A stretch of 64,000 nt of DNA, from contig WTBT01000022.1 in NCBI GenBank assembly GCA_013138965.1, forward strand, positions 7,459 to 71,458, given 5' to 3'. This document shows, in pieces, positions 20,221 through 64,000 of this stretch; within the stretch, counting starts at the first letter, position 1, and every line of letters begins with the position of its first letter. This DNA comes from Candidatus Aegiribacteria sp. (GTDB lineage: Bacteria; Fermentibacterota; Fermentibacteria; Fermentibacterales; JCC-6). Under the pieces are notes generated by a model that worked only from the letters and a program-made list of their open reading frames with translations, did not search any database and was not told the DNA's origin. Both the position numbers and the translations under genes were made by a program.

Positions 20221-20691
20221 CTAGAAGGAAATCAGGCTCGCCTGCCTGGAATATTCAGAGAAAGGAGCTGTCCTGATGCCCGATTTCGAAGAAAGCCGGA
20301 TGTCAGCGTTCTTGGATTCGTGTATGGCCATTTCGATGCCTGAAGGTTCAGTAATCGATTCCTGATCGCCGGAAAGAGGAAGTATCGCGAGGGCGAAGAT
20401 CAGAAGAGCGGCAACAGCGGGAAGCGCCAGAAATGCGCTGCGGAACCCGTGATCCGAATGCCTGATATCGGCGGTGCTATGAAGCATTTCCCTGATATTC
20501 TTTTCAAGATCCGGAGAAGGGGGCGGAGCGGGTAGTTTTCCGGCTATCTCCGAAATATCCCTGCACATGCTCATAGCTTTTCTGCAGGAACCGCAGCCCA
20601 TCAGATGGAAATCAAGAAGCCTTTTCTGATATTCAGCAGCTTCTCCATCGATAACAAGACTTATTATTTTTACTGCATTTGAACAGTTCAT
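20221..20691 (-). CDS. anti-sigma factor, zf-HC2 type with one TM helix
   Basis: 'HLMGCGSCRKAMSMC' zinc-finger motif plus TM segment FLALPAVAALLIFALAIL. Its ATG overlaps the sigma-factor stop as ATGA (20688-20691). Confidence 0.65.
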   Translation of the reverse strand: MNCSNAVKIISLVIDGEAAEYQKRLLDFHLMGCGSCRKAMSMCRDISEIAGKLPAPPPSPDLEKNIREMLHSTADIRHSDHGFRSAFLALPAVAALLIFALAILPLSGDQESITEPSGIEMAIHESKNADIRLSSKSGIRTAPFSEYSRQASLISF

Positions 20692-21218
20692 TTCCACTCT
20701 TCCCATACATGATCCAGTAGATCCCTCAGTCTTGTCCTGGCGCGGTTAATCCTTGATTTTACAGTTCCAAGGCGGATATTGAGGACATCCGAAATGTCTT
20801 CGTACGACATCTGTTCCTGTTCTCTTAGAATGAACGGCTCTCTGTAATGGGGAGGCAGCTTGTCAACTGCTTCCTCTATCGATGCCCTGAGTTCAATTCT
20901 TCCGGCATTGTAATGCGGCGCAGTCTTGCCTGAACTTGTAAGGTTGACATGTTCAAGCGGGACATTTATCCATCTTGACCTTCTGCGCCATTCCTTCTTT
21001 GCCAGATTGCTGGCGATTGTGAATATCCAGTTTACCAGTTTCCTGTCGGTATCGAATTTGTCTCTGTACCTGTAAACCCTGCAGAACGTGAGCTGGAGCA
21101 TTTCGTGGGCATCTTCCTCGTTTCCGAGCATCCTTATCAGCATTGAGTAAATCGGAGCCTGAAATCTTCTGATTACTTCAGAAAAGGCCTCTTCATCGCC
21201 TTTGCAGAGGTCAATCAT
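20688..21218 (-). CDS. ECF (sigma-70 family, group IV) RNA polymerase sigma factor
   Basis: Region 2 '..EAFSEVIRRFQAPIYSMLIRMLGNEEDAHEMLQLTFCRVY' and region 4 'MSYEDISDVLNIRLGTVKSRINRARTRL'. ORF 20688..21389 is 233 aa; the internal ATG at 21218 gives the usual ~177 aa and leaves room for a promoter. Confidence 0.8.
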   Translation of the reverse strand: MIDLCKGDEEAFSEVIRRFQAPIYSMLIRMLGNEEDAHEMLQLTFCRVYRYRDKFDTDRKLVNWIFTIASNLAKKEWRRRSRWINVPLEHVNLTSSGKTAPHYNAGRIELRASIEEAVDKLPPHYREPFILREQEQMSYEDISDVLNIRLGTVKSRINRARTRLRDLLDHVWEEWK

Positions 21219-21415
21219 AAGTTCGGAATCGGATCTTGAATCTTTTTCCGTACGTTTGGCTGTTATAATTCTTCCAGTCAAAATACACCTTCCTGGAGTC
21301 GGCGCCTGGGGTCGGCAATCAGTATCTTCACAGATAATATACCCGATACCGCCTGTCTTGTTCCAGCCTTCATTACTTGACCTGAACATGATATTTGGTG
21401 AAGATAGTGTCTACC

Positions 21416-31965: not shown

Positions 31966-32430
31966 TCATATTCTTCTGCGTAGTTTGTGTTTAAATATAT
32001 TCATAATTCTTTCTGTTTCAGTTTTCATTCTCGATACTCCAAGAAGTCCACCTGAGAAACCTGTCATGCCGCTTGAAAATACCAGCGTAGTATTCTGTGC
32101 ATTTGAGTAGATATTAATATTGAATTTATAGCGTTTCGCAAAACCACCCAACAGGAACCGACATAGAGAACTACCTGTTGCGTAGACACCATTGACTGGT
32201 GTACCACTATCGAGTTGATACCCTTCTTCAAAGAAGATATTAGCAACATTTCGAGCAGTTTCGTCAATAGATACACTGATTATTGTAACTTTAAAACCTG
32301 ACCCCAGATTTACGTAGGAGATAAACTTATTCGATGTCTGATTATGCTTTTCCGATAAAGCTTTTCCACAGAATGTGCAAAATGCCGTAGTATTCTCTGG
32401 AAGCTTTTGACCACATCTGGAACAATACAT
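31966..32430 (-). CDS. zinc-ribbon domain protein (N-terminal CxxC...CxxC) with uncharacterised soluble C-terminal domain
   Basis: 'MYCSRCGQKLPENTTAFCTFCGKAL'. Opposite strand to all neighbours, AT-rich context. ORF 31966..32451 with ATG at 32430. Confidence 0.5.
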   Translation of the reverse strand: MYCSRCGQKLPENTTAFCTFCGKALSEKHNQTSNKFISYVNLGSGFKVTIISVSIDETARNVANIFFEEGYQLDSGTPVNGVYATGSSLCRFLLGGFAKRYKFNINIYSNAQNTTLVFSSGMTGFSGGLLGVSRMKTETERIMNIFKHKLRRRI

Positions 32431-32566
32431 TGCAACCTCCTGGAAAACCATACTGTACCATATCGGTTATTAATCTCATGTGTATTCAGTAGATCTGTAT
32501 ATTTTATATACTTCTATACTCAAATATTACGCTATTTGAATAGTGGCATCCATCCACAACTTTTAG

Positions 32567-32959
32567 TTATAACTCGGCCATGAGTGGCAGGAAAAATAAG
32601 AAGAAAAAGACCAAATCAATCACACCCAGTACAATAGCTGCTGTTCCCATTCCTTCTCCGGTATAAAATTCCGGTCGTTCTTTTACTTTCTTTTTCGCGC
32701 CGTTACCCAATATGATAGCGATTATCCCAAAAATGATACCAAAGAAAAATATGCCGATCAAGCCGCATACAAGTCCTGCTACTGCTCCCGGGGCGTTCTT
32801 TCTGATAATTTGAACTCCTTGTGCATAAGGTATGGATGAAGCCGTATTATATACCTGAGTTCCTCCAGATGTATCTTTTATACTGTCTCCACAGTACGGA
32901 CAGAAGGCTTCAACTTTATTTTCATCAAGCTGTTTTCCGCATTTTGAACAGAACATCAT
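32567..32959 (-). CDS. zinc-ribbon plus two-TM (DUF4190-like) membrane protein
   Basis: 'MFCSKCGKQLDENKVEAFCPYCGDSI', then 'APGAVAGLVCGLIGIFFFGIIFGIIAIILGNGAKKK' and a second TM helix. Paralogous N-terminus to the adjacent gene. Confidence 0.55.
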   Translation of the reverse strand: MMFCSKCGKQLDENKVEAFCPYCGDSIKDTSGGTQVYNTASSIPYAQGVQIIRKNAPGAVAGLVCGLIGIFFFGIIFGIIAIILGNGAKKKVKERPEFYTGEGMGTAAIVLGVIDLVFFFLFFLPLMAEL

Positions 32960-53124: not shown

Positions 53125-53331
53125 ATGATGTTTCGTCCAGGTACCGGTGAAATAATACTGATAGTCGTTGTTCTCCTACTCCTTTTCGGGGCAAAAAGAA
53201 TTCCGGATCTGGCCAGGTCAATTGGTCAGGCGCTCCATATGTTCAAAAAAGGAATGAAAGAAGGTATTTTGGATATAGATAAGGATGAAGACGATTCTGG
53301 AAACGGGGAAAATACGGATGGCCACAGTTAG
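53125..53331 (+). CDS. tatA: twin-arginine translocase subunit TatA/E
   Basis: 'GEIILIVVVLLLLFGAKRIPDLARSIGQA' TM plus amphipathic helix, acidic tail. Confidence 0.8.
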   Translation: MMFRPGTGEIILIVVVLLLLFGAKRIPDLARSIGQALHMFKKGMKEGILDIDKDEDDSGNGENTDGHS

Positions 53332-53926
53332 CTACAGTTCAAGAGAGATCGACTGCAAACTGGTATACGCCGGACCTGGATTGTCCGGCAAGACGACTAA
53401 CGTCAAGTTCATTCATAGTCAGATACCTTCCAGTGACAGGGGGAAGCTGATCTCTTTAGCTACAGGTAACGAACGTACCCTGTTTTTTGATTTCCTTCCT
53501 ATAAACACAGGCACGATCTACGGATTCAAAGTAAGGCTACATCTGTACAGTGTACCGGGACAGGCGATGTATACGGACAGCCGCCAGCTGATTCTTCAGG
53601 GAGTTGACGGTATTATCTTCGTAGCTGATTCCCAGAGGGCCAGAATGGACGCTAACATAGCAAGTCTGCACGATCTGAAGGATAATCTCAAGGGTACGAA
53701 AAGAAAAGGACTCAGCCTTGTGCTCCAGACCAACAAAAGAGACCTTCCGGATATTCATCCCACTGATGTTATAAGAAAGCGACTTGGCCTTGAAAGAGTC
53801 CCCTGTATCGAATCAGTTGCCACGGATGGCACAGGTGTGTTCGAAACCCTCAGAAAAGCAAGCCGCATCGTTATGCGCAGACTGCACCGTCAGTTCTCTC
53901 TTGCCCTTGACCAGAAGAGAGGTTGA
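53318..53926 (+). CDS. mglA: MglA-type small Ras-like GTPase
   Basis: 'YSSREIDCKLVYAGPGLSGKTT', 'TLFFDFLP', 'RLHLYSVPGQ', 'FVADSQ', 'NKRDL' closely match Myxococcus MglA. Confidence 0.85.
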   Translation: MATVSYSSREIDCKLVYAGPGLSGKTTNVKFIHSQIPSSDRGKLISLATGNERTLFFDFLPINTGTIYGFKVRLHLYSVPGQAMYTDSRQLILQGVDGIIFVADSQRARMDANIASLHDLKDNLKGTKRKGLSLVLQTNKRDLPDIHPTDVIRKRLGLERVPCIESVATDGTGVFETLRKASRIVMRRLHRQFSLALDQKRG

Positions 53927-53942
53927 ATTGAACAGCCGCAGG

Positions 53943-55412
53943 ATGGTTGACCTTCTTCTTGTAAGACTTACAAGTGAAGATGAAAAAAATAAAGTAGTGA
54001 ACCTGCTCATGAGCGAACTTGGCATGTCCCGGGAAGAGGCAAGGGATAAGGTCGATAATTCCCCCAATATTCTCAGCGAAGGCGTTGAAATGGAGCAGGG
54101 CAGAATACTTCAGGACAGGATGTATCCATTCGTAGACCTCCTCCCGAGGCATTACGATGCTAAATCCACCGTGAAAGCCGCGAAAGATAATGAACCTGAA
54201 GAGTCACCCTATGAATTGATTACGGATGATATCGCTCCCCTGAATGAAGAGAAGGGAAAACAGCATCCTGATAGCGGGGAATCAAATGACATCTACCATA
54301 ACCCGAGCGCCATAACTGAAGAGGATTATGCGCCCAAGTCGTTTGATGATAAGGATGACGATTCTCTTATCATTACCTCAGCTTCCGAGGAGATGCTTAG
54401 TATTGAACGGTGCCACATCTGCGGCAGAACTCCCACAGGCGATCAGAAACTTGCTCCCTGTCAAACATGCGGAGACCTTACATGCGCAAACTGTTACAAC
54501 AGAAAACACCACGTCTGCAATAAGTGCGCTGCTGCGGGAAGAGTTGTGGATCGCCCGCTGGACTCCGTGCCCGAAAAAAGGGAAGAAATCCCTGATGAAG
54601 ACCGCAATATAGAGGCGAAATATGACTCGTCAAAAAGAATATCCAGACCTGTAAGAACCGGGACACTATCCAGGAATTTGCCCCTGGCTATCATTTTAAC
54701 ATCCCTGATTCTGGTTGCAGCCTTCATCATAATCGATCCGATGAATCTCTTTACTTCCCCGGATAACAGTACGGATGGCACTGCAGTCTTACCTGTGGAT
54801 ACCTGCAATGAGGCCGATTCGGTCGAGGTCCCTGATACAACCCTTATTCCGGAAGCTGATATGACTGTTACTCCGGATGACTCCCTCTTTGCGGATTCCG
54901 TGGTGTCCATCAAATACATTTCACTCAGAGATATCTCCGTGCCCGATTCACTTGGAATCGGCGAGGGATATTCACTGCCCAGAATTCTTAACTCCTCACC
55001 TGTTGCCGGTATAGAGATTCAAACGGATTCCCTGCCCTTTATTGCGGATATTCTGGGTCAGCTGGCATCAGTTTATTCCATCGAGTTCGACGGCATTTCG
55101 CTTATACGCACACATGACGGATTTGACATTCTTTTAATGTCCATACTCCATCCTGAACCGGCGGAAAAAAGAACAGCTCTGCTGGGCAATCTCGGCACAG
55201 CGCTCGATTCAACAATAGTTGACCAGATGGTTCTGTACTACAGAGAAAACCAGTATTACGAGGCGGAGATGTTCACTTTCACAGCTGACAGTTTCTCTAT
55301 CCTTGCAAGATCCAACAGCCCGAATTTCCTTCAGAGGAAACAGGCGGTAATACACGAAACAACGGAACTTATCACCGGTAGAATCCTTGACTGGATGACA
55401 GATCTGAACTGA
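53943..55412 (+). CDS. membrane protein: N-terminal ribosomal L7/L12-CTD-like domain, acidic linker, double Cys4 zinc ribbon, one TM helix, periplasmic domain
   Basis: 'NKVVNLLMSELGMSREEARDKVDNSPNILSEGVEMEQGRIL' parallels bL12 CTD '[35 protein letters not shown]'. 'CHICGR..CQTCGD..CANC..CNKC'. TM 'LPLAIILTSLILVAAFIII'. Confidence 0.5.
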   Translation: MVDLLLVRLTSEDEKNKVVNLLMSELGMSREEARDKVDNSPNILSEGVEMEQGRILQDRMYPFVDLLPRHYDAKSTVKAAKDNEPEESPYELITDDIAPLNEEKGKQHPDSGESNDIYHNPSAITEEDYAPKSFDDKDDDSLIITSASEEMLSIERCHICGRTPTGDQKLAPCQTCGDLTCANCYNRKHHVCNKCAAAGRVVDRPLDSVPEKREEIPDEDRNIEAKYDSSKRISRPVRTGTLSRNLPLAIILTSLILVAAFIIIDPMNLFTSPDNSTDGTAVLPVDTCNEADSVEVPDTTLIPEADMTVTPDDSLFADSVVSIKYISLRDISVPDSLGIGEGYSLPRILNSSPVAGIEIQTDSLPFIADILGQLASVYSIEFDGISLIRTHDGFDILLMSILHPEPAEKRTALLGNLGTALDSTIVDQMVLYYRENQYYEAEMFTFTADSFSILARSNSPNFLQRKQAVIHETTELITGRILDWMTDLN

Positions 55413-57692: not shown

Positions 57693-58573
57693 TCGAGGAT
57701 TTCTGCGGAGAGCTGCTTTACGGCCGGAAATTCTCGAATAATACGGTAAGGGCCTACAAGGCCGATCTTTATAGATTTACTAACTGGCAGCATGCAGGCT
57801 GTATTCTTGATGGATTCACACTAACTGAGCTAAGAGGATTTCTTCGACATGAAGCGTCAAGGGGGCTGGATTCAAAGTCTCTGGCCCGGGAGGTATCATC
57901 GCTGAGGACATTCGGGAACTGGCTGCTTGAAACAGAAAGACTGCACGCCAATAATCCTGCGAAACTGATAGCCATGCCTAGAACACCGATCAGCCTTCCG
58001 GGATTTCTAAGTGTTTCTGAGGTTCGCCAGGTCATCGACAGTTACGATGAATCCACTGTTCTTGGCAGGCGGAACCGGGCTATAGTCGAGTTACTGTACG
58101 GAGCCGGGCTCAGAGCATCGGAAACCGCGTCGGCTACACTGAGCGGGCTGAATCTGAATACAGGAGAGATAAGGGTTATTGGCAAAGGCAAGAGAGAGAG
58201 GATCGTTCCGCTTCCTGAGCTGACCTGCAGATCGCTCCGATCATGGATTAACTGCAGAGGCGAGCTTACTGCTGATTTCGCTGATGAGCCTGAAACTGTT
58301 TTTATAAGTATCCGTGGAAGAAAGCTTGACCCCAGAGATATCCGGCGTATTGTTGCATTCGGAGTGAAAAATGCTGCACGGGCAGCGGGAGCAACGCCGC
58401 ATACTTTCCGCCACAGCTTCGCGACTCATCTCCTTGATAATGGAGCCGACCTTAGAGCTGTTCAGGAAATGCTCGGGCACGCAAGCCTTTCTACAACTCA
58501 GGTGTATACTCACCTGACGATGGAGAGATTGAGGGAAGCATACAGGAAAGCACATCCCAGGGGGGAAGAGTGA
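57668..58573 (+). CDS. xerC: tyrosine recombinase XerC/XerD family
   Basis: 'HTFRHSFATHLLDNGADLRAVQEMLGHASLSTTQVYTH' catalytic box with terminal Tyr. Confidence 0.8.
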   Translation: MQEENSDLIEDFCGELLYGRKFSNNTVRAYKADLYRFTNWQHAGCILDGFTLTELRGFLRHEASRGLDSKSLAREVSSLRTFGNWLLETERLHANNPAKLIAMPRTPISLPGFLSVSEVRQVIDSYDESTVLGRRNRAIVELLYGAGLRASETASATLSGLNLNTGEIRVIGKGKRERIVPLPELTCRSLRSWINCRGELTADFADEPETVFISIRGRKLDPRDIRRIVAFGVKNAARAAGATPHTFRHSFATHLLDNGADLRAVQEMLGHASLSTTQVYTHLTMERLREAYRKAHPRGEE

Positions 58574-61500
58574 CATACAACATTGAAGATATGAAAAGAA
58601 TAAGGATCGACAGAACCATTTCCGTGTTGGTAGGGTTTGCAGCCCTGCTGACCTATCTGGTCACACTCGCTCCCAGTGTGAGTTTCTGGGACAGCGGGGA
58701 GTACTTGACATGTTCCTGGACAGCCGGGGTCCCGCACCCTCCTGGTGTTCCACTCTTCGTCCTGCTTGGGAGATTCAGCACTATTCTCTTCTCCTTTATT
58801 CCTGCAATTGCGGTACGTGTCAATCTCCTCTGCGCTTTTGCCGGCGCATCCACACTTGCTATTCTGACCCGTCTCGTTCAGCGATGGGGGAACAGAATGG
58901 GATTCACACCCTCCTGGTACAGGCCCATGTCCGTTCTCGCGGGGCTTATCGCTGCTTTCAGTTACTCTATCTGGCGCAACAGCAATGCCACCGAGACATA
59001 CGCTACAGCGCTGCTCCTGACATTCATCATCATGTGGTCATTTGATTGCTGGATAGAGAAATACGCTGAGAAAAAACACGAGAAGGGAAAGAAAGATCAC
59101 GGCGGATGGGGAGAGGCAAGGTACCTTCTTCTCATATCTTACCTCTTGATTCTTGCAATTGGAAATCACGGCAGCGTACCCTTCGTCGCCGGCCCTCCCA
59201 TACTCCTTATGTACCTTATCTACGCTTTCAGGAAAAAGACGGATATATGGAAACGGTCATGGTTCGTTCTTACCATACTCGGTCTGGTGGTTCTGGCTTT
59301 CAGCATTCATCTATATATGCCCATCCGCGCGCTTCAGAATCCGGAGATAAACGAAACGGATGCTGAGCACTGGTCCAATTTCGAGAAGGCCTTCACGCGG
59401 GAGCAGTACGGAAGCACTTCGATACTCGACAGGAAGGGACCGTTCTTAGACCAGATGAAGCTGTACATGAAATACCTCTCCTGGCAGTCAGGCAGGGTGA
59501 ACGACGGATGGGATCGTTATCTGGGTGAGACAGCGGGTTCCGCCGCTTCAATGGTAATGAAGATAATACTTATTTTCGGAGCAATTTACGGCCTGGTGGT
59601 GCTTGGCATAAAGAGGCCCAAACTGCTTTTATATCTCGGTTTACTATTCCTGATGTCATCAATCCTCTTCATTTTCTTTATACTCAATTTCAAGACAGGG
59701 CTTGAGGGCACAACTTTGGGAGAAGTAAGGGAGAGGGACTACTTCTTCGGTGCATCTTTCGCGCTGTTCGCCGTATTCTCTGGAATAGGGCTGGTTTCCG
59801 TATTCAGGGATTTCCTTTCGGAGAGATCCGGACTGGTCTGGGTTACATTGCTGATACCTATGGCATCCTTCGGAGTTAATTTCTACAGATGTGACAGATC
59901 GGAATCACTGCTTGCTCACGATTACGGCATAAATCTCCTTGAAAGCTGCCCTGAAAACGCAGTTCTCATAACCAACGGTGACAACGATACATTTCCCCTC
60001 TGGTTCGCCCAGGGAGTGCTGGGGGTACGCAGGGATGTTATAGTAAGCAACCTGAGCCTGATGAACACGAACTGGTACGTTCAGCAGCTTGTGGATAGAG
60101 ACCCACTGCTTCTTGATTATGATGACTATGGACTTGTGGATTCACTGCGTCCAATCTACATATGGGGTCCGCACTACTTCCATCAGAACAGGAACGGGAG
60201 TGTTGAGTCATCGCCCCTTGACGGGGAGATCCTCCGCGTTACTTTCAATCAGGTATGGCCGTGGGCAATAATTGATGGTGAGATGGCCATAGCTATTCCC
60301 ACAGAAGGCCTCTCCAACCAGGGCGTGCTTACAATGCAGGATCTTGTTCTACTGAATATGATTAAGAATAAACCTGTTCATGGTCGTGAGATCTATTTCG
60401 CGGGTACTGTCGCGCCTGAAAGCCGGCGGTTTCTTGAAGATTACCAGGAGATGCAGGGCATCACATTCAGGATAACGGATCACCCGGTTGTCGATGCCGT
60501 CAACAGCGCCAGGGGCTGGCAGCTGATGGAAAGCTACAGGTTCACCGGAGTAACTGATCCCTCCATATACAAATGTGACCAGGCCGTGCAGCTACTGAAG
60601 AATTACGTTTCAGCATATCACAGGCTTGCCTATCATTACCTGGCAGCGGGAGAACCGGATAGTGTACGACTGGTTCTTGACAGGGCAGAGCAGCTTTTTT
60701 CTACACTGCCTAACGACTGGGCAGAGATAATGCCGTCCAGAGCAATGATAGTGGCTAAACTTATCGATGGTCTCTACGGGCCGAAGGCTGCCGCGGATAC
60801 TCTTCTGGTTCTTGCTGAAGAGTCGCTGGAAGCTGCGCGAAGTACGGGGAATCAGGAGCTTATGCGGCTTTCTCTTTCGATAGCCGGTATGGCCACCAGT
60901 TCGGATGATACTTTCGGGTACAGGCGGAAGATGGTCTACGGAAACTTTTTCGATACTCTTGATAATCGTTCCATACCGTTAGCTTGGTTGAAGATAGAGG
61001 TATCTCTGATGTTCTCCGATTTTATTGGAGCATGGAGCATACTGGACAGCATGGAGATAACGGAGGATCCAACTACGGTGAAGCTGGCTGAGCTGGCCCG
61101 GAATACTCTCGAGAATATTATGGAGAGCTCCAGGACAGGCTCCAGGGTGAATTATTTTGAAACCGGCTTATCTATATTCTTTGAATCCATTGATCAGAAT
61201 ATTTCCACTGATCTTGATCTGAACGAAAACGCAAACCTGGGAGATATAATCGACGATATGATCAGGCTGGCATCCAGGGGACATATCATGTCATCGATCT
61301 CAACGGGTCTTGTTCTCTCGGATTATTTTGACGATCAGGCCGAAGCCCGCATGATAGCCGAATTTGCATACAGACTGATGCGGGACAGCACTGAAGAAAC
61401 CCGTAAATGGCTGGAATGGTACGTAACTGAAAGCAACAGGGTTTCCCCGGAAGCCCTTGCATGGATGGCTGCGAAAGGCTCGAGACCCTTCCTTATGTAT

Positions 61501-61647
61501 GCCGCGCTCAGCAGAAGCAGCCTTGTTTCAGAATCGATTCTTTCCGAGATATTCTTTGATCCCGCGTTGTACGCAGGATCCGTACCTGATCCCGGTAGCG
61601 GTGCCGGCAGATACTCGTGGGTCAATTCACTTGATGGAGGACAATGA
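58570..61647 (+). CDS. DUF2723-family large membrane protein (putative GT-C glycosyltransferase) with C-terminal helical-repeat region
   Basis: 'SFWDSGEYLTCSWTAGVPHPPGVPLFVLLG' is the DUF2723 hallmark. Multiple TM helices. 1025 aa. Confidence 0.6.
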   Translation: MTYNIEDMKRIRIDRTISVLVGFAALLTYLVTLAPSVSFWDSGEYLTCSWTAGVPHPPGVPLFVLLGRFSTILFSFIPAIAVRVNLLCAFAGASTLAILTRLVQRWGNRMGFTPSWYRPMSVLAGLIAAFSYSIWRNSNATETYATALLLTFIIMWSFDCWIEKYAEKKHEKGKKDHGGWGEARYLLLISYLLILAIGNHGSVPFVAGPPILLMYLIYAFRKKTDIWKRSWFVLTILGLVVLAFSIHLYMPIRALQNPEINETDAEHWSNFEKAFTREQYGSTSILDRKGPFLDQMKLYMKYLSWQSGRVNDGWDRYLGETAGSAASMVMKIILIFGAIYGLVVLGIKRPKLLLYLGLLFLMSSILFIFFILNFKTGLEGTTLGEVRERDYFFGASFALFAVFSGIGLVSVFRDFLSERSGLVWVTLLIPMASFGVNFYRCDRSESLLAHDYGINLLESCPENAVLITNGDNDTFPLWFAQGVLGVRRDVIVSNLSLMNTNWYVQQLVDRDPLLLDYDDYGLVDSLRPIYIWGPHYFHQNRNGSVESSPLDGEILRVTFNQVWPWAIIDGEMAIAIPTEGLSNQGVLTMQDLVLLNMIKNKPVHGREIYFAGTVAPESRRFLEDYQEMQGITFRITDHPVVDAVNSARGWQLMESYRFTGVTDPSIYKCDQAVQLLKNYVSAYHRLAYHYLAAGEPDSVRLVLDRAEQLFSTLPNDWAEIMPSRAMIVAKLIDGLYGPKAAADTLLVLAEESLEAARSTGNQELMRLSLSIAGMATSSDDTFGYRRKMVYGNFFDTLDNRSIPLAWLKIEVSLMFSDFIGAWSILDSMEITEDPTTVKLAELARNTLENIMESSRTGSRVNYFETGLSIFFESIDQNISTDLDLNENANLGDIIDDMIRLASRGHIMSSISTGLVLSDYFDDQAEARMIAEFAYRLMRDSTEETRKWLEWYVTESNRVSPEALAWMAAKGSRPFLMYAALSRSSLVSESILSEIFFDPALYAGSVPDPGSGAGRYSWVNSLDGGQ

Positions 61648-62183
61648 TCGAAGATATTCACGCAACAACTGTAGTGGGGATAGTCCGTAACGGTAAGGCA
61701 GCAATGGCGGCGGATGGTCAGGTAACCCTTGGTGAAACCGTAATTAAAAACACGGCAAGAAAGATAAGAAAACTCTATTCCGGTACTGTTCTTGTTGGTT
61801 TCTCCGGTACCGGGGCCGATGCTTTTGCTCTTGTTGAAAGGCTTGAGGAGAAACTCGAGACGGCCAGAGGCAATCTTCCGAGGGCAGCTGTAGACCTGGC
61901 ACGTGAATGGAGAGCTGATAAGTACCTTAGACAGCTTCAGGCTCTTATTGCCGCCGTTGACAGAGAGCATGCCCTGCTTATTGGCGGCTCCGGCGAGATC
62001 GTTGAAGCGGAAGATGGAATTGTCGCGGTAGGTTCCGGACAACCATACGCCCTGGCAGCCGCCAGGGCTCTTGATGCCCATACGAAAATGGGACCCGCGA
62101 GAATTGCAGGTGAGAGTATTAGAATCGCATCCGGGATATGCATCTATACCGGCGGCGATATACAGGTTGAGGAACTCCTCTGA
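61644..62183 (+). CDS. hslV: ATP-dependent protease subunit HslV (CodW-like N-terminal extension ending HATT)
   Basis: 'TTVVGIVRNGKAAMAADGQVTLG...GFSGTGADAF..GSGQPYALAAARAL'. Preceded by MIEDIHA as in B. subtilis CodW (MSSFHATT). Confidence 0.9.
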   Translation: MIEDIHATTVVGIVRNGKAAMAADGQVTLGETVIKNTARKIRKLYSGTVLVGFSGTGADAFALVERLEEKLETARGNLPRAAVDLAREWRADKYLRQLQALIAAVDREHALLIGGSGEIVEAEDGIVAVGSGQPYALAAARALDAHTKMGPARIAGESIRIASGICIYTGGDIQVEELL

Positions 62184-63496
62184 TGGAAAGAGATCTAACA
62201 CCGTCTCAGATCGTGCAATGGCTTGATCGCCATGTAATTGGCCAGGACAACGCAAAACGTGCTGTTGCAATAGCCCTTCGAAATCGCTACAGAAGAAGGA
62301 AAGCATCCTTCGATATGAGGTCGGAGATATATCCCAGCAATCTTATAATGATGGGACCTACAGGCATAGGTAAAACAGAGATCGCCAGAAGGCTTGCCAA
62401 TCTTACAGGCGCTCCATTTGTAAAAGTAGAAGCAACCAAGTATACGGAAACCGGTTACGTCGGCAGAGATGTTGAATCAATGGTCAGATCTCTTGTCCGT
62501 CATGCGGTGAACATCGAGGCGGAAATAGCAGCTAAAGAACGTGAAGGACAGCTCAAAGACGCTGTAAACAACAAACTGGCTGAAGCGCTGAGGAAAACCG
62601 GTTGCGATTCGATGACCAGCAGTGAGATAATTCGAATGATTGATAAGGGACTCCTTGATGATACTGAAATTGAACTTATCCTCCCTGAGCATATGGCGCA
62701 TATGGAGATACTGCCACTTATGCCTGGAGGTGGTTTCGACAATCCGGCCGGGGAGAACCTGAAAAAGCTCATGCAGAAAATGGTTGGCAGCAGGCGGAAA
62801 AGAAAGAAGCTAACCGTTAAAGAGGCAAGGGAGCGGCTCCAGGAAGAAGAAATGAGAAGGCTTCTGGAGAACAGTGATCATATTTCAAGAGGCCTCTGGC
62901 TTGCTCAGGAGGAAGGTATAATCTTCATTGATGAGATCGATAAGATCATTGGCGGCAGCGAAAGCAAGGGGCCTGAGGTTTCCAGAATGGGGGTTCAGAG
63001 GGATCTGCTTCCTATTGTTGAAGGCTGTACGGTTCAGACCAGGTACGGTCCGGTCAATACAGATCATATACTGTTTATCGCCGCAGGAGCATTTCATGGA
63101 TCCAGCCCTTCAGATCTGATACCTGAACTTCAGGGACGTTTCCCGATGAGGGTTGAACTTGATTCCCTTTCTGAACAGGACCTGTTCCGGGTACTTACAG
63201 AACCGGAAAATTCCCTTCTCAAACAGTATTCAGCTTTACTGGAAGCAGACGGTGTTAAACTAAAACTGTACAGAAAGGCGGCACTCGAAGTTGCAAGAGT
63301 CGCAAACTATCTTAACGAAGAAACAGAAGATATAGGGGCAAGAAGACTCAGGCCGGTATTGAGTTATCTTCTGGATGAACAGCTATTTGGAGCACCTGAC
63401 CTTGTCCGGGGTGATGTGAATATTACAGGTGTCAAGGCTTCAGCAATACTGCTTGACCTTGCTGATCGTAGAGAAGATGGTAATTATATCCTTTAA
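62183..63496 (+). CDS. hslU: ATP-dependent protease ATPase subunit HslU
   Basis: 'TPSQIVQWLDRHVIGQDNAKRAVAIALRNRYRR', Walker A 'GPTGIGKTEIARRLA'. Confidence 0.95.
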   Translation: MERDLTPSQIVQWLDRHVIGQDNAKRAVAIALRNRYRRRKASFDMRSEIYPSNLIMMGPTGIGKTEIARRLANLTGAPFVKVEATKYTETGYVGRDVESMVRSLVRHAVNIEAEIAAKEREGQLKDAVNNKLAEALRKTGCDSMTSSEIIRMIDKGLLDDTEIELILPEHMAHMEILPLMPGGGFDNPAGENLKKLMQKMVGSRRKRKKLTVKEARERLQEEEMRRLLENSDHISRGLWLAQEEGIIFIDEIDKIIGGSESKGPEVSRMGVQRDLLPIVEGCTVQTRYGPVNTDHILFIAAGAFHGSSPSDLIPELQGRFPMRVELDSLSEQDLFRVLTEPENSLLKQYSALLEADGVKLKLYRKAALEVARVANYLNEETEDIGARRLRPVLSYLLDEQLFGAPDLVRGDVNITGVKASAILLDLADRREDGNYIL

Positions 63497-63529
63497 GTCA
63501 ATTAGAAAAACATCTGAAACGGAGATAAA

Positions 63530-64000
63530 TGCATCGATCTGTAAATGAGGTAGCCTACAAAATTGTATACTACGGCCCCGGGCTTTCAGGAAAAACCACT
63601 AATTTGAGAAGGATCAGAGACATAATTGGTCCTGAACACCGTGGAAGGCTCGTAACGCTCTGCACCAGAGGCGAAAGAACCGTATTTTTCGATTTTCTCC
63701 CGATTAATTTCGCCTCTATCGGAAATGACAGGGTAAGGCTGCATCTCTATTCAGTACCCGGACAGGCCTATTACTCCCTTAGCAGAAGGGTAATTCTCGA
63801 CGGCGTTGATGGTATTGTTTTCGTGGCGGACAGCCAGACAGAACGTATGGATGCGAGTGTGGACAGTATTGAAGATCTCGAGAGCAATCTTGAATCCTAC
63901 GGGCTTGAGCTTTCCGCGATCCCGACCGTACTTCAGTTCAACAAGCGCGATCTCCCTTCAATCGCATCGACTGTGCAAATGGAGAAGCTTCTCAATCGCT
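63530..64000 (+). CDS. second MglA-like small GTPase (3'-partial at window edge)
   Basis: 'YKIVYYGPGLSGKTTNL', 'TVFFDFLP', 'RLHLYSVPGQ', 'FVADSQ', 'NKRDLP'. Not in the ORF track because there is no stop codon before the window end. Confidence 0.8.

Follow-up and report, generated by a model that had tools for sequence, protein, structure and literature searches.

A Fermentibacteria-restricted membrane protein with a diverged L12-CTD domain and a conserved mglA neighbor

Introduction

Here we describe a string of three genes on the + strand of a 64-kb stretch of DNA from Candidatus Aegiribacteria (the window, to whose positions all coordinates refer). In this string, the twin-arginine translocase gene tatA (53125–53331) and mglA1 (53318–53926), which encodes a Ras-like GTPase of the MglA type, are followed by the gene of a 489-amino-acid (aa) single-pass membrane protein, hereafter the target (53943–55412). 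The target belongs to a new protein family that is restricted to Fermentibacteria, and its first 70 residues are, judging from family-wide profiles and predicted structures, a true but diverged member of the superfamily of the C-terminal domain (CTD) of ribosomal protein bL12. By analogy with known MglA-dependent systems, we tentatively propose, with a probability of roughly 40%, that the target serves a localization module under MglA control as a membrane-anchored adaptor or scaffold, and the wider idea that it is a membrane-anchored partner of MglA seems plausible to us. An initial annotation made from the sequence alone had already read this stretch as tatA, mglA, and a membrane-protein gene, and all three lie where it had placed them.

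No Ras-like GTPase of bacteria has been studied better than MglA, but hardly any of its partners are known beyond Myxococcus, Thermus, and Bdellovibrio, and many mglA genes are orphans that lack an mglB. The locus presented here offers a phylum-conserved candidate partner with three cytoplasmic elements, one transmembrane helix, and a periplasmic domain. If the link to MglA is true, it would extend the principle of a membrane adaptor read by MglA, as in GltJ, to an uncultured phylum of the FCB group and provide a first function for a diverged nonribosomal L12-CTD domain. If the link is false, the locus would still document a new protein family and the wide use of the L12 CTD outside the ribosome.

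An N-terminal domain related to the C-terminal domain of bL12

The N-terminal module of the target (aa 1–70; 53943–54152, + strand), which is predicted to lie in the cytoplasm, had been likened to the bL12 CTD in the initial annotation, and a fold check of residues 1–70 had been proposed there. We examined it with AlphaFold2 (AF2), Foldseek, and hhalign, using a family profile of the first ca. 72 residues (A2) that also served for searches of PDB sequences and of 1.84 billion representative proteins. The AF2 model computed on the A2 alignment has a predicted local distance difference test score (pLDDT) of 95 and the β-α-α-β-α-β fold of the bL12 CTD (PF00542; PDB entry 1ctf), with strands at residues 2–6, 42–48, and 64–68 and helices at 12–26, 30–38, and 50–60. 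All ten top matches of this model in the PDB are bL12 CTDs, with 1ctf superposing at TM-scores of 0.75/0.79, a root-mean-square deviation (rmsd) of 2.4 Å, 22% identity, and a Foldseek probability of 1.0. A model of the full-length target gave the same outcome for this domain, and over both models the bL12 CTD matches reach TM-scores of 0.75–0.82 at an rmsd of 2.0–2.4 Å. The resemblance noticed from the translation alone is thus borne out by the predicted fold as well as by the profile matches described below.

Taken alone, the target matches PF00542 with an E value of 0.15 and 12.9 bits, below the gathering threshold of 25.9 bits. Across the family, 30 of 52 aligned members match PF00542 (E ≤ 1), all in one register and with a best E value of 1.6e-5, while the highest score, 25.6 bits for P0100, does not reach that threshold. 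The A2 profile is more sensitive: among 177,635 PDB sequences its top eight chains are all bL12, and a HMMER search of the 1.84 billion representatives returned 54 proteins at E ≤ 1e-3, of which about 20 are the target family itself. The remainder are nonribosomal proteins with 1 to 9 tandem L12-CTD domains that Pfam assigns to PF00542 at 1e-21 to 6e-123. For the proteins confirmed in this way, the library-wide E values of A2 range from 2e-20 to 8e-4 (1.84e9 sequences). Comparison of A2 by hhalign with an alignment of nonribosomal PF00542 domains and the bL12 CTDs of E. coli and T. maritima gave 98.2% probability (E 4.8e-14), though this template set had itself been picked with the A2 profile. 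Against the E. coli bL12 CTD alone, the probability was 86%. It is therefore the evidence from the whole family that settles the homology, given that the target by itself stays below threshold.

The target and bL12 share the signature hhxxhh...EAxxxVxxxP (A33/A83, V37/V87, and P41/P91 in target and bL12 numbering, respectively). However, bL12 carries an N-terminal dimerization and bL10-binding domain and a hinge, neither of which the target has; its CTD-like domain begins at residue 2, and an N-terminal bL10-binding domain is found in no family member. Whereas bL12 sits on the ribosome, this copy is fused to a membrane protein and has drifted below Pfam recognition, and we conclude from these sequence features that it is not a ribosomal bL12. 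The second-best structural class was the N-degron adaptor ClpS, which shares a SCOP-level fold with the L12 CTD (TM-scores of 0.64–0.71). With its lower Foldseek rank, an identity of 12–16%, and no sequence-profile match, we rejected a ClpS identity for the domain. Separately, one 121-aa protein in the representative library, P0118, seems to be chimeric or misassembled, as it consists of an EGF-like Cys-rich fragment fused to residues ca. 27–65 of a Sabulitectum-type N-domain.

Beyond its own family, the nearest sequence relatives of the target N-domain are the nonribosomal PF00542 proteins (P0114, P0115, P0119, P0121, P0123, P0126, P0127, P0132, P0137, P0141, P0144, P0146, P0147, and those of loci L065, L067, and L068, the first of which has two such genes side by side). 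They are numerous and built in various ways, some with signal-peptide-like N-termini and others with transmembrane segments (P0127 and P0132), leucine-rich repeat arrays, or a TIR domain (P0146). Like the target, these proteins use the L12-CTD fold off the ribosome, and some of them place it beside a transmembrane segment. Unlike the target, they retain a bL12-like signature (24 letters) and clear the Pfam threshold by a wide margin, whereas the one copy in the target has diverged much further and has an invariant set of its own. A literature search for PF00542 domains outside the ribosome found nothing relevant. As PF00542 is common in nonribosomal proteins, the fold alone does not imply binding of a GTPase.

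A family confined to Fermentibacteria

Searches of 5.8 billion proteins recovered 105 homologs of the target with the single sequence and 142 with a family profile, all of them full-length family members; P0001 in these public data is a gene call identical to our 489-aa target. Every named homolog comes from metagenome-assembled genomes of Fermentibacteria, Aegiribacteria, or Sabulitectum, and none from beyond this phylum. Their database names are "hypothetical protein" throughout, save for one "FYVE zinc finger domain-containing protein". The target therefore represents a new, Fermentibacteria-restricted protein family, and the known kinds of proteins that it resembles are the nonribosomal L12-CTD proteins and the membrane adaptors associated with MglA.

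To place the family in its genomic context, we surveyed one genome per GTDB species, which yielded 61 loci, all from Fermentibacteria, of which 58 include DNA upstream of the target gene. In essentially all of them, tblastn found the order hepI-like gene, DUF4321 gene, tatA, mglA, target, topA, and xerC. In 57 of the 58 species loci, the gene immediately preceding the target is mglA, and tatA lies directly upstream of mglA1 in all 57 loci that carry mglA1 with upstream DNA. The gap between mglA and target ranges from −1 to ca. 45 nt, and this adjacency is kept down to a target identity of 29%. The initial annotation had named a lack of co-conservation of the two genes across related genomes as a refutation of its proposal of an MglA partner; with 57 of 58 loci, the pair is co-conserved.

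MglA1 is a group-1-type MglA without a neighboring mglB

The product of mglA1 (53318–53926, + strand; 202 aa) matches Thermus MglA (3t12) in its full length (residues 1–189, E 1.5e-62) and the Myxococcus MglA structures 6hjh, 6h17, and 5ymx at 1.3e-59. Its identity to M. xanthus MglA is approximately 51%. The mechanical open reading frame (ORF) begins at 53285, and the ATG at 53318 is the start that matches the solved structures, its residue 1 pairing with residue 3 of 3t12. From this ATG, mglA1 overlaps the tatA stop by 14 nt. Group-1 MglA proteins are marked by the motifs G1–G5 with (T/S)VPGQ in G3 and by an intrinsic arginine adjoining the G2 threonine (Wuichet and Sogaard-Andersen, PMC4316618). 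MglA1 combines its full-length similarity with the motifs GPGLSGKTT (G1), NERT with the intrinsic arginine, SVPGQ (G3), and NKRD (G4), each at least 90% conserved in 57 orthologs, and its identity across 57 species is 71–98%. The reading of this gene as an mglA with all G motifs and a PGQ switch II that overlaps tatA was therefore correct.

The same is true of the remark that no mglB or roadblock gene adjoins. A tblastn search with M. xanthus MglB found no match in the window or the 61 loci, which is a weak negative; a Pfam scan of ten small ORFs of the window gave no Robl_LC7 match; and no Roadblock protein is found among the Pfam-annotated genes within ±10 kb in the relatives L062, L063, and L064. 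In the DNA examined, i.e., the window, the loci, and ±10 kb of these relatives, MglA1 is uncoupled from mglB. This is no oddity, since orphan MglA proteins are functional and the neighborhoods of group-1 mglA genes vary (PMC4316618). SofG and the MglA of Bdellovibrio are likewise not encoded beside mglB (PMC4316618), and MglA1 differs from these in being embedded in the string of tatA, mglA, and membrane-protein gene, in having SVPGQ rather than TVPGQ in G3, and in having a second paralog 10 kb downstream.

That paralog, mglA2, starts with an ATG at 63529 and is cut by the end of the window at 64000 (+ strand; 56% identity to MglA1 by tblastn); orthologs occur in L062 (17544–18122) and L063 (19736–20320). 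In both of these relatives, mglA2 runs with overlapping stop and start into the gene of a ca. 739-aa polytopic membrane protein without a Pfam family (L062 17544–20325 and L063 19736–21698 for the pair), which from its sequence may be GT-C-like. In this phylum, each of the two mglA paralogs is consequently followed by a gene of its own for a large, Pfam-less membrane protein.

Frozen gene order or functional link?

The conservation of the locus extends far beyond the three genes. In distant relatives with targets only 34–35% identical, a block of ca. 20 kb with unrelated housekeeping genes is syntenic, starting with HPF, hprK, ptsH, ptsI, a nucleotidyltransferase gene, two GT4 glycosyltransferase genes, and the hepI-like and DUF4321 genes, and ending with tatA, mglA, target, topA, xerC, a TMEM260-like gene, sometimes hslVU, mglA2, and the gene of the ca. 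739-aa polytopic protein. Because this block is kept across the phylum, the adjacency of mglA and target is no more conserved than that of target and topA and says little on its own. The tight spacing is the sole argument from context for co-expression: the target starts 16 nt after the mglA1 stop in the window, the two genes overlap by 1 nt in L062, and tatA and mglA overlap as well. We consider it most likely that the three genes are co-transcribed. They are part of a long array of co-directional + strand genes, and a promoter and terminator scan of 49–58.8 kb gave no clear promoters or terminators by which operon limits could be set.

The evidence for the proposed role of the target in an MglA-controlled module is contextual, and three observations weigh against this role. 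The first follows from the synteny just described, as mglA and target may be neighbors through frozen gene order and not through function. The second is a clade (P0063/P0066; loci L021 7604–9581, L063, and L064 9658–11698) that has no mglA between tatA and target, where a gap of about 120–145 nt is left, and yet keeps the target. The third is that the three informative neighborhoods of nonribosomal PF00542 proteins hold no small GTPase, so that a general association of nonribosomal L12-CTD proteins with small GTPases, which we had considered, finds no example in this very small sample.

These points lend themselves to a different account, in which the target has no functional link to MglA and is an independent envelope protein (a sensor, anchor, or assembly factor) whose cytoplasmic modules bind something else, its position next to mglA being simply inherited. 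We regard this as only slightly less likely than the adaptor role. It would explain why the entire 20-kb region including topA, xerC, and the phosphotransferase system (PTS) genes is syntenic and lies in one long co-directional run, and why the target is unchanged where mglA1 has been deleted. At conserved positions of the mglA1-less clade, we counted 4 changes among 26 in the L12-like domain, 1 among 26 in the zinc finger, and 1 among 15 in the C-terminal domain, all of them conservative (L to I/V, M to I, L to A) and similar to what is seen in control clades with mglA1. We had considered that selection on the L12-like domain might be relaxed in this clade, but saw no sign of it. On the other hand, the spacing of mglA and target has stayed tight at target identities of 29–35%, and the architecture of the protein parallels known MglA and polarity adaptors (see below). 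Moreover, the mglA1-less clade still has an MglA2 (66% identical to MglA2 and about 50% to MglA1). This clade amounts to a natural deletion and would be useful for testing whether the target depends on MglA1.

Architecture of the target protein

C-terminal to the L12-like domain follows an acidic linker (aa 71 to about 143–146; 54153–54371, + strand) that is predicted to be disordered (pLDDT 31–45). Across the family it measures 44–117 aa and carries a net charge of −4 to −44, with a median of −22 over 72 aa. Orthologs of MglA1 share a basic loop, NL(K/R)xxKRKG (residues ca. 122–131; window ca. 53681–53710), that is missing from MglA2 and from Myxococcus MglA. The opposite charges of this loop and the linker may be an electrostatic complementarity or a coincidence and are suggestive at best.

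The linker leads into a module that combines a conserved ITSAxEE motif, modeled as a short helix (148–152), with an eight-cysteine zinc finger (aa 144–205; 54372–54557, + strand; pLDDT 79–94). The finger has the form RCHxCGRTPT...CxxC...CxxC...RxxHVCxxC with the spacing CX2C-X12-CX2C-X4-CX2C-X7-CX2C. In 52 sequences, no exchange is seen at its cysteines (C157/C160, C173/C176, C181/C184, and C192/C195) or at R156, H158, G161, T163, P164, R187, H190, and V191, and 47 of 52 members have exactly eight cysteines before the transmembrane helix. The eight conserved cysteines imply two metal sites. In Pfam scans, the 52 members echo FYVE (24 members), zf-UDP (the RING of cellulose synthases; 17), B-box (12), and Prok-RING_2 (11), all below threshold (best E values of 0.0068 for FYVE, 0.012 for Prok-RING_2, and 0.046 for zf-UDP). 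The PI3P-binding motif of FYVE domains, (R/K)(R/K)HHCR at the third cysteine, is not present, and RxxHVC sits at the seventh cysteine instead. From these sub-threshold matches, the module would probably be of the RING/FYVE-like type, with ligands that may be cross-braced or sequential.

Behind the finger, a second disordered stretch with basic residues precedes the only transmembrane helix (aa 246–264; 54678–54734, + strand), which is a helix in the model and stands out in hydropathy (KD19 near 2.9, with the runner-up at 1.2). The net charge is +5 in the 15 residues before this helix and −3 in the 15 after it, and 48 of 52 members conform to the positive-inside rule, which places the N-terminus of the target in the cytoplasm. 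On the far side, a disordered, D/S/T/P-rich spacer (aa 265–320; 54735–54902, + strand; pLDDT 31–44) of variable length and poor conservation is followed by a predicted periplasmic α/β domain (aa 321–489; 54903–55409, + strand; pLDDT ca. 95) with an invariant HPE motif (H403, P404, and E405) and conserved R410, Y433, F451, and P460. Thus, the initial annotation had the acidic linker and the single transmembrane helix right, while its two Cys4 zinc ribbons stand as eight cysteines but hardly as two separate ribbons given that the Pfam echoes are all cross-brace fingers, and its periplasmic domain of ca. 280 aa shrinks to 225 aa past the helix, ca. 55 of them disordered and ca. 170 folded.

The C-terminal domain belongs to no Pfam or NCBIfam family and has no relatives outside the target family in single-sequence or profile searches of the 5.8 billion proteins. 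Foldseek against the PDB yielded weak nuclease-like matches only (rmsd 7–17 Å) and no convincing fold match. A Roadblock/MglB fold was considered for it and rejected, as this fold is absent from the 50 best PDB matches of the full-length model and the domain is predicted to be periplasmic. Searching PDB sequences with the full-length family profile returned low-complexity matches to acidic tails (MIA40) and one marginal match to a cellulose-synthase RING, and NCBIfam holds no model for the target or for the hepI-like and DUF4321 genes.

The start codon of the target deserves a remark. An alternative in-frame TTG at 53928 lies five codons upstream of the ATG and is preceded by a GAGAGG motif at a distance of 5 nt, and many homologs bear an N-terminal extension of 3–10 aa, for which reasons 53928 may be the true start.

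The domain does not keep the factor-binding face of bL12

One way in which the target could engage MglA would be that of the ribosomal stalk, with its L12-like domain docking MglA as the bL12 CTD recruits translational GTPases and perhaps replacing MglB as regulator. The idea is attractive because the domain is a true homolog of the bL12 CTD and the best-conserved part of the target, because mglA adjoins in nearly all loci (57/58), and because MglB was not found nearby. It fares poorly at the level of residues. In E. coli bL12, V66, I69, K70, R73, L80, E82, and K84 reportedly bind EF-Tu, EF-G, IF2, and RF3, and we take these positions in helices 4 and 5 to be the factor-binding sites. They align to target columns 16, 19, 20, 23, 30, 32, and 34 in a register fixed by HMMER and hhalign (A33 = A83 and P41 = P91), and the entropies of these columns are 2.68, 2.45, 2.44, 1.55, 2.91, 1.25, and 2.06 bits, respectively, so that five of seven exceed 2 bits and rank among the highest in the domain. 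Conservation is found elsewhere, on β1, β3, and helix 3. The invariants are V2, D3, L5, L6, V7, R8, and L9 of strand 1, D65-L66-L67-P68 of strand 3, and E14, K15, V18, L22, A33, P41, R54, Q57, Y61, and P62. As strand 1 is conserved on either face, the sheet may present a binding surface.

Judged by this list of residues, the target's copy of the L12 CTD is without the factor-binding face of the stalk. The varied nonribosomal uses of PF00542 described above mark the fold as a promiscuous module. Further points speak against docking in the manner of bL12. The stalk protein contacts the G' domain of EF-G and helix D of EF-Tu, features that the 200-aa Ras-like MglA lacks or is not known to share. 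The clade without mglA1 retains an intact L12-like domain, and PF00542 also occurs in proteins with signal-peptide-like N-termini, where docking of a GTPase is unlikely. We therefore consider such docking improbable; of the GTPase-docking partner put forward in the initial annotation, the fold and the co-conservation with mglA stand, while the bL12-style mode of docking finds no support.

A related scenario, to which we give equally little weight, is that of a membrane receptor whose cytoplasmic head would be an exapted copy of the L12 CTD and would bind MglA through a re-evolved surface, perhaps replacing regulation by MglB. If true, it would link the recruitment of translational and of signaling GTPases through one ancient fold. 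Less credible still is mimicry of the ribosomal stalk itself, whereby the domain would bind translational GTPases or compete on the ribosome and so tether translation factors to the membrane near the Tat machinery. Such a role could draw on the bL12 CTD homology and on tatA in the same gene string, but the domain has not conserved the factor-binding residues, the target has no N-terminal part for binding bL10, and the conserved block is devoid of genes for ribosomal proteins or translation except for HPF, about 8 kb upstream.

The target as a candidate membrane adaptor of MglA

The role that we favor for the target, that of an adaptor or scaffold anchored in the membrane within a localization module under MglA control, takes its model from GltJ of the Agl-Glt gliding machinery of M. 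xanthus, a membrane protein that combines a zinc finger in the cytosol with a disordered linker and another small domain (PMC11135422). GltJ works as a switch in which MglA-GTP binds the linker and the ZnR domain recruits MglB (PMC11135422). The target is like GltJ in being anchored in the membrane and in presenting a cytosolic N-terminal region that unites a long disordered linker with a zinc finger and one small globular domain. The parts differ, as GltJ combines a single-zinc ZnR with a GYF domain, whereas the target combines an eight-cysteine finger with the L12-like domain in the opposite order. Pfam scans found no GYF or ZnR match in the target, and no sequence relationship to GltJ was found. 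By sequence, the target is thus not a member of the ZnR-GYF family of GltJ, and the resemblance is one of layout alone.

A second parallel is ZitP of Caulobacter, reportedly a polarity factor of the membrane that makes protein-protein contacts through a cytoplasmic zinc finger at its N-terminus and further has a transmembrane segment and, across the membrane, a C-terminal domain (DUF3426). The partners of ZitP are said to be PopZ and CpaM and not MglA. ZitP and the target share the order of zinc finger, transmembrane segment, and far-side C-terminal domain, although the finger of ZitP is of the single-zinc kind and ZitP has no L12-like domain. We detected no homology between the two proteins.

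On these analogies, the target would couple the nucleotide state of MglA in the cytoplasm to a process in the envelope or periplasm, as GltJ does in Myxococcus. Four cytoplasmic elements are candidates for a contact with MglA, if there is one: the L12-like domain, the linker with its acidic residues, the ITSAxEE motif, or the zinc finger. The first of these could serve as a generic protein-binding module that uses its invariant surface of β-sheet and helix 3 rather than the helix-4/5 surface of bL12. As to the output, Hyd24-12/Fermentibacteria have been described as rod-shaped diderms that lack flagella but have genes for type IV pili (PMC5030696). By analogy, MglA would position polar machines in cells of this kind, and type IV pili or the assembly of cell-surface structures are candidate outputs. 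A literature search found no paper linking Fermentibacteria with MglA.

Further genes in the window

Upstream of mglA1, the tatA gene (53125–53331, + strand) encodes a TatA/E subunit of 68 aa that matches PF02416 at E 4.2e-16 and TIGR01411 with 58.7 bits, above the curated cutoff of 53.9 bits. Between xerC and mglA2, a 1025-aa TMEM260-like membrane protein is encoded at 58570–61647 (its syntenic counterparts in L062 and L063 match PF11028), followed by hslV/hslU (61644–63496), which are missing at that position in some relatives, e.g., L062.

Two pairs of − strand genes lie elsewhere in the window. At 31966–32959, two adjoining small genes encode proteins with N-terminal zinc ribbons, one of them with a DUF4190 membrane domain, and this pair sits in a low-GC stretch (dipping to 0.42 at 32–34 kb) that breaks the + strand array. 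At 20221–21389, the gene of a sigma factor of the extracytoplasmic function (ECF) type (Sigma70_r2 and r4_2) precedes that of an anti-sigma-like protein with zf-HC2, an ordinary pair that is unrelated to the target.

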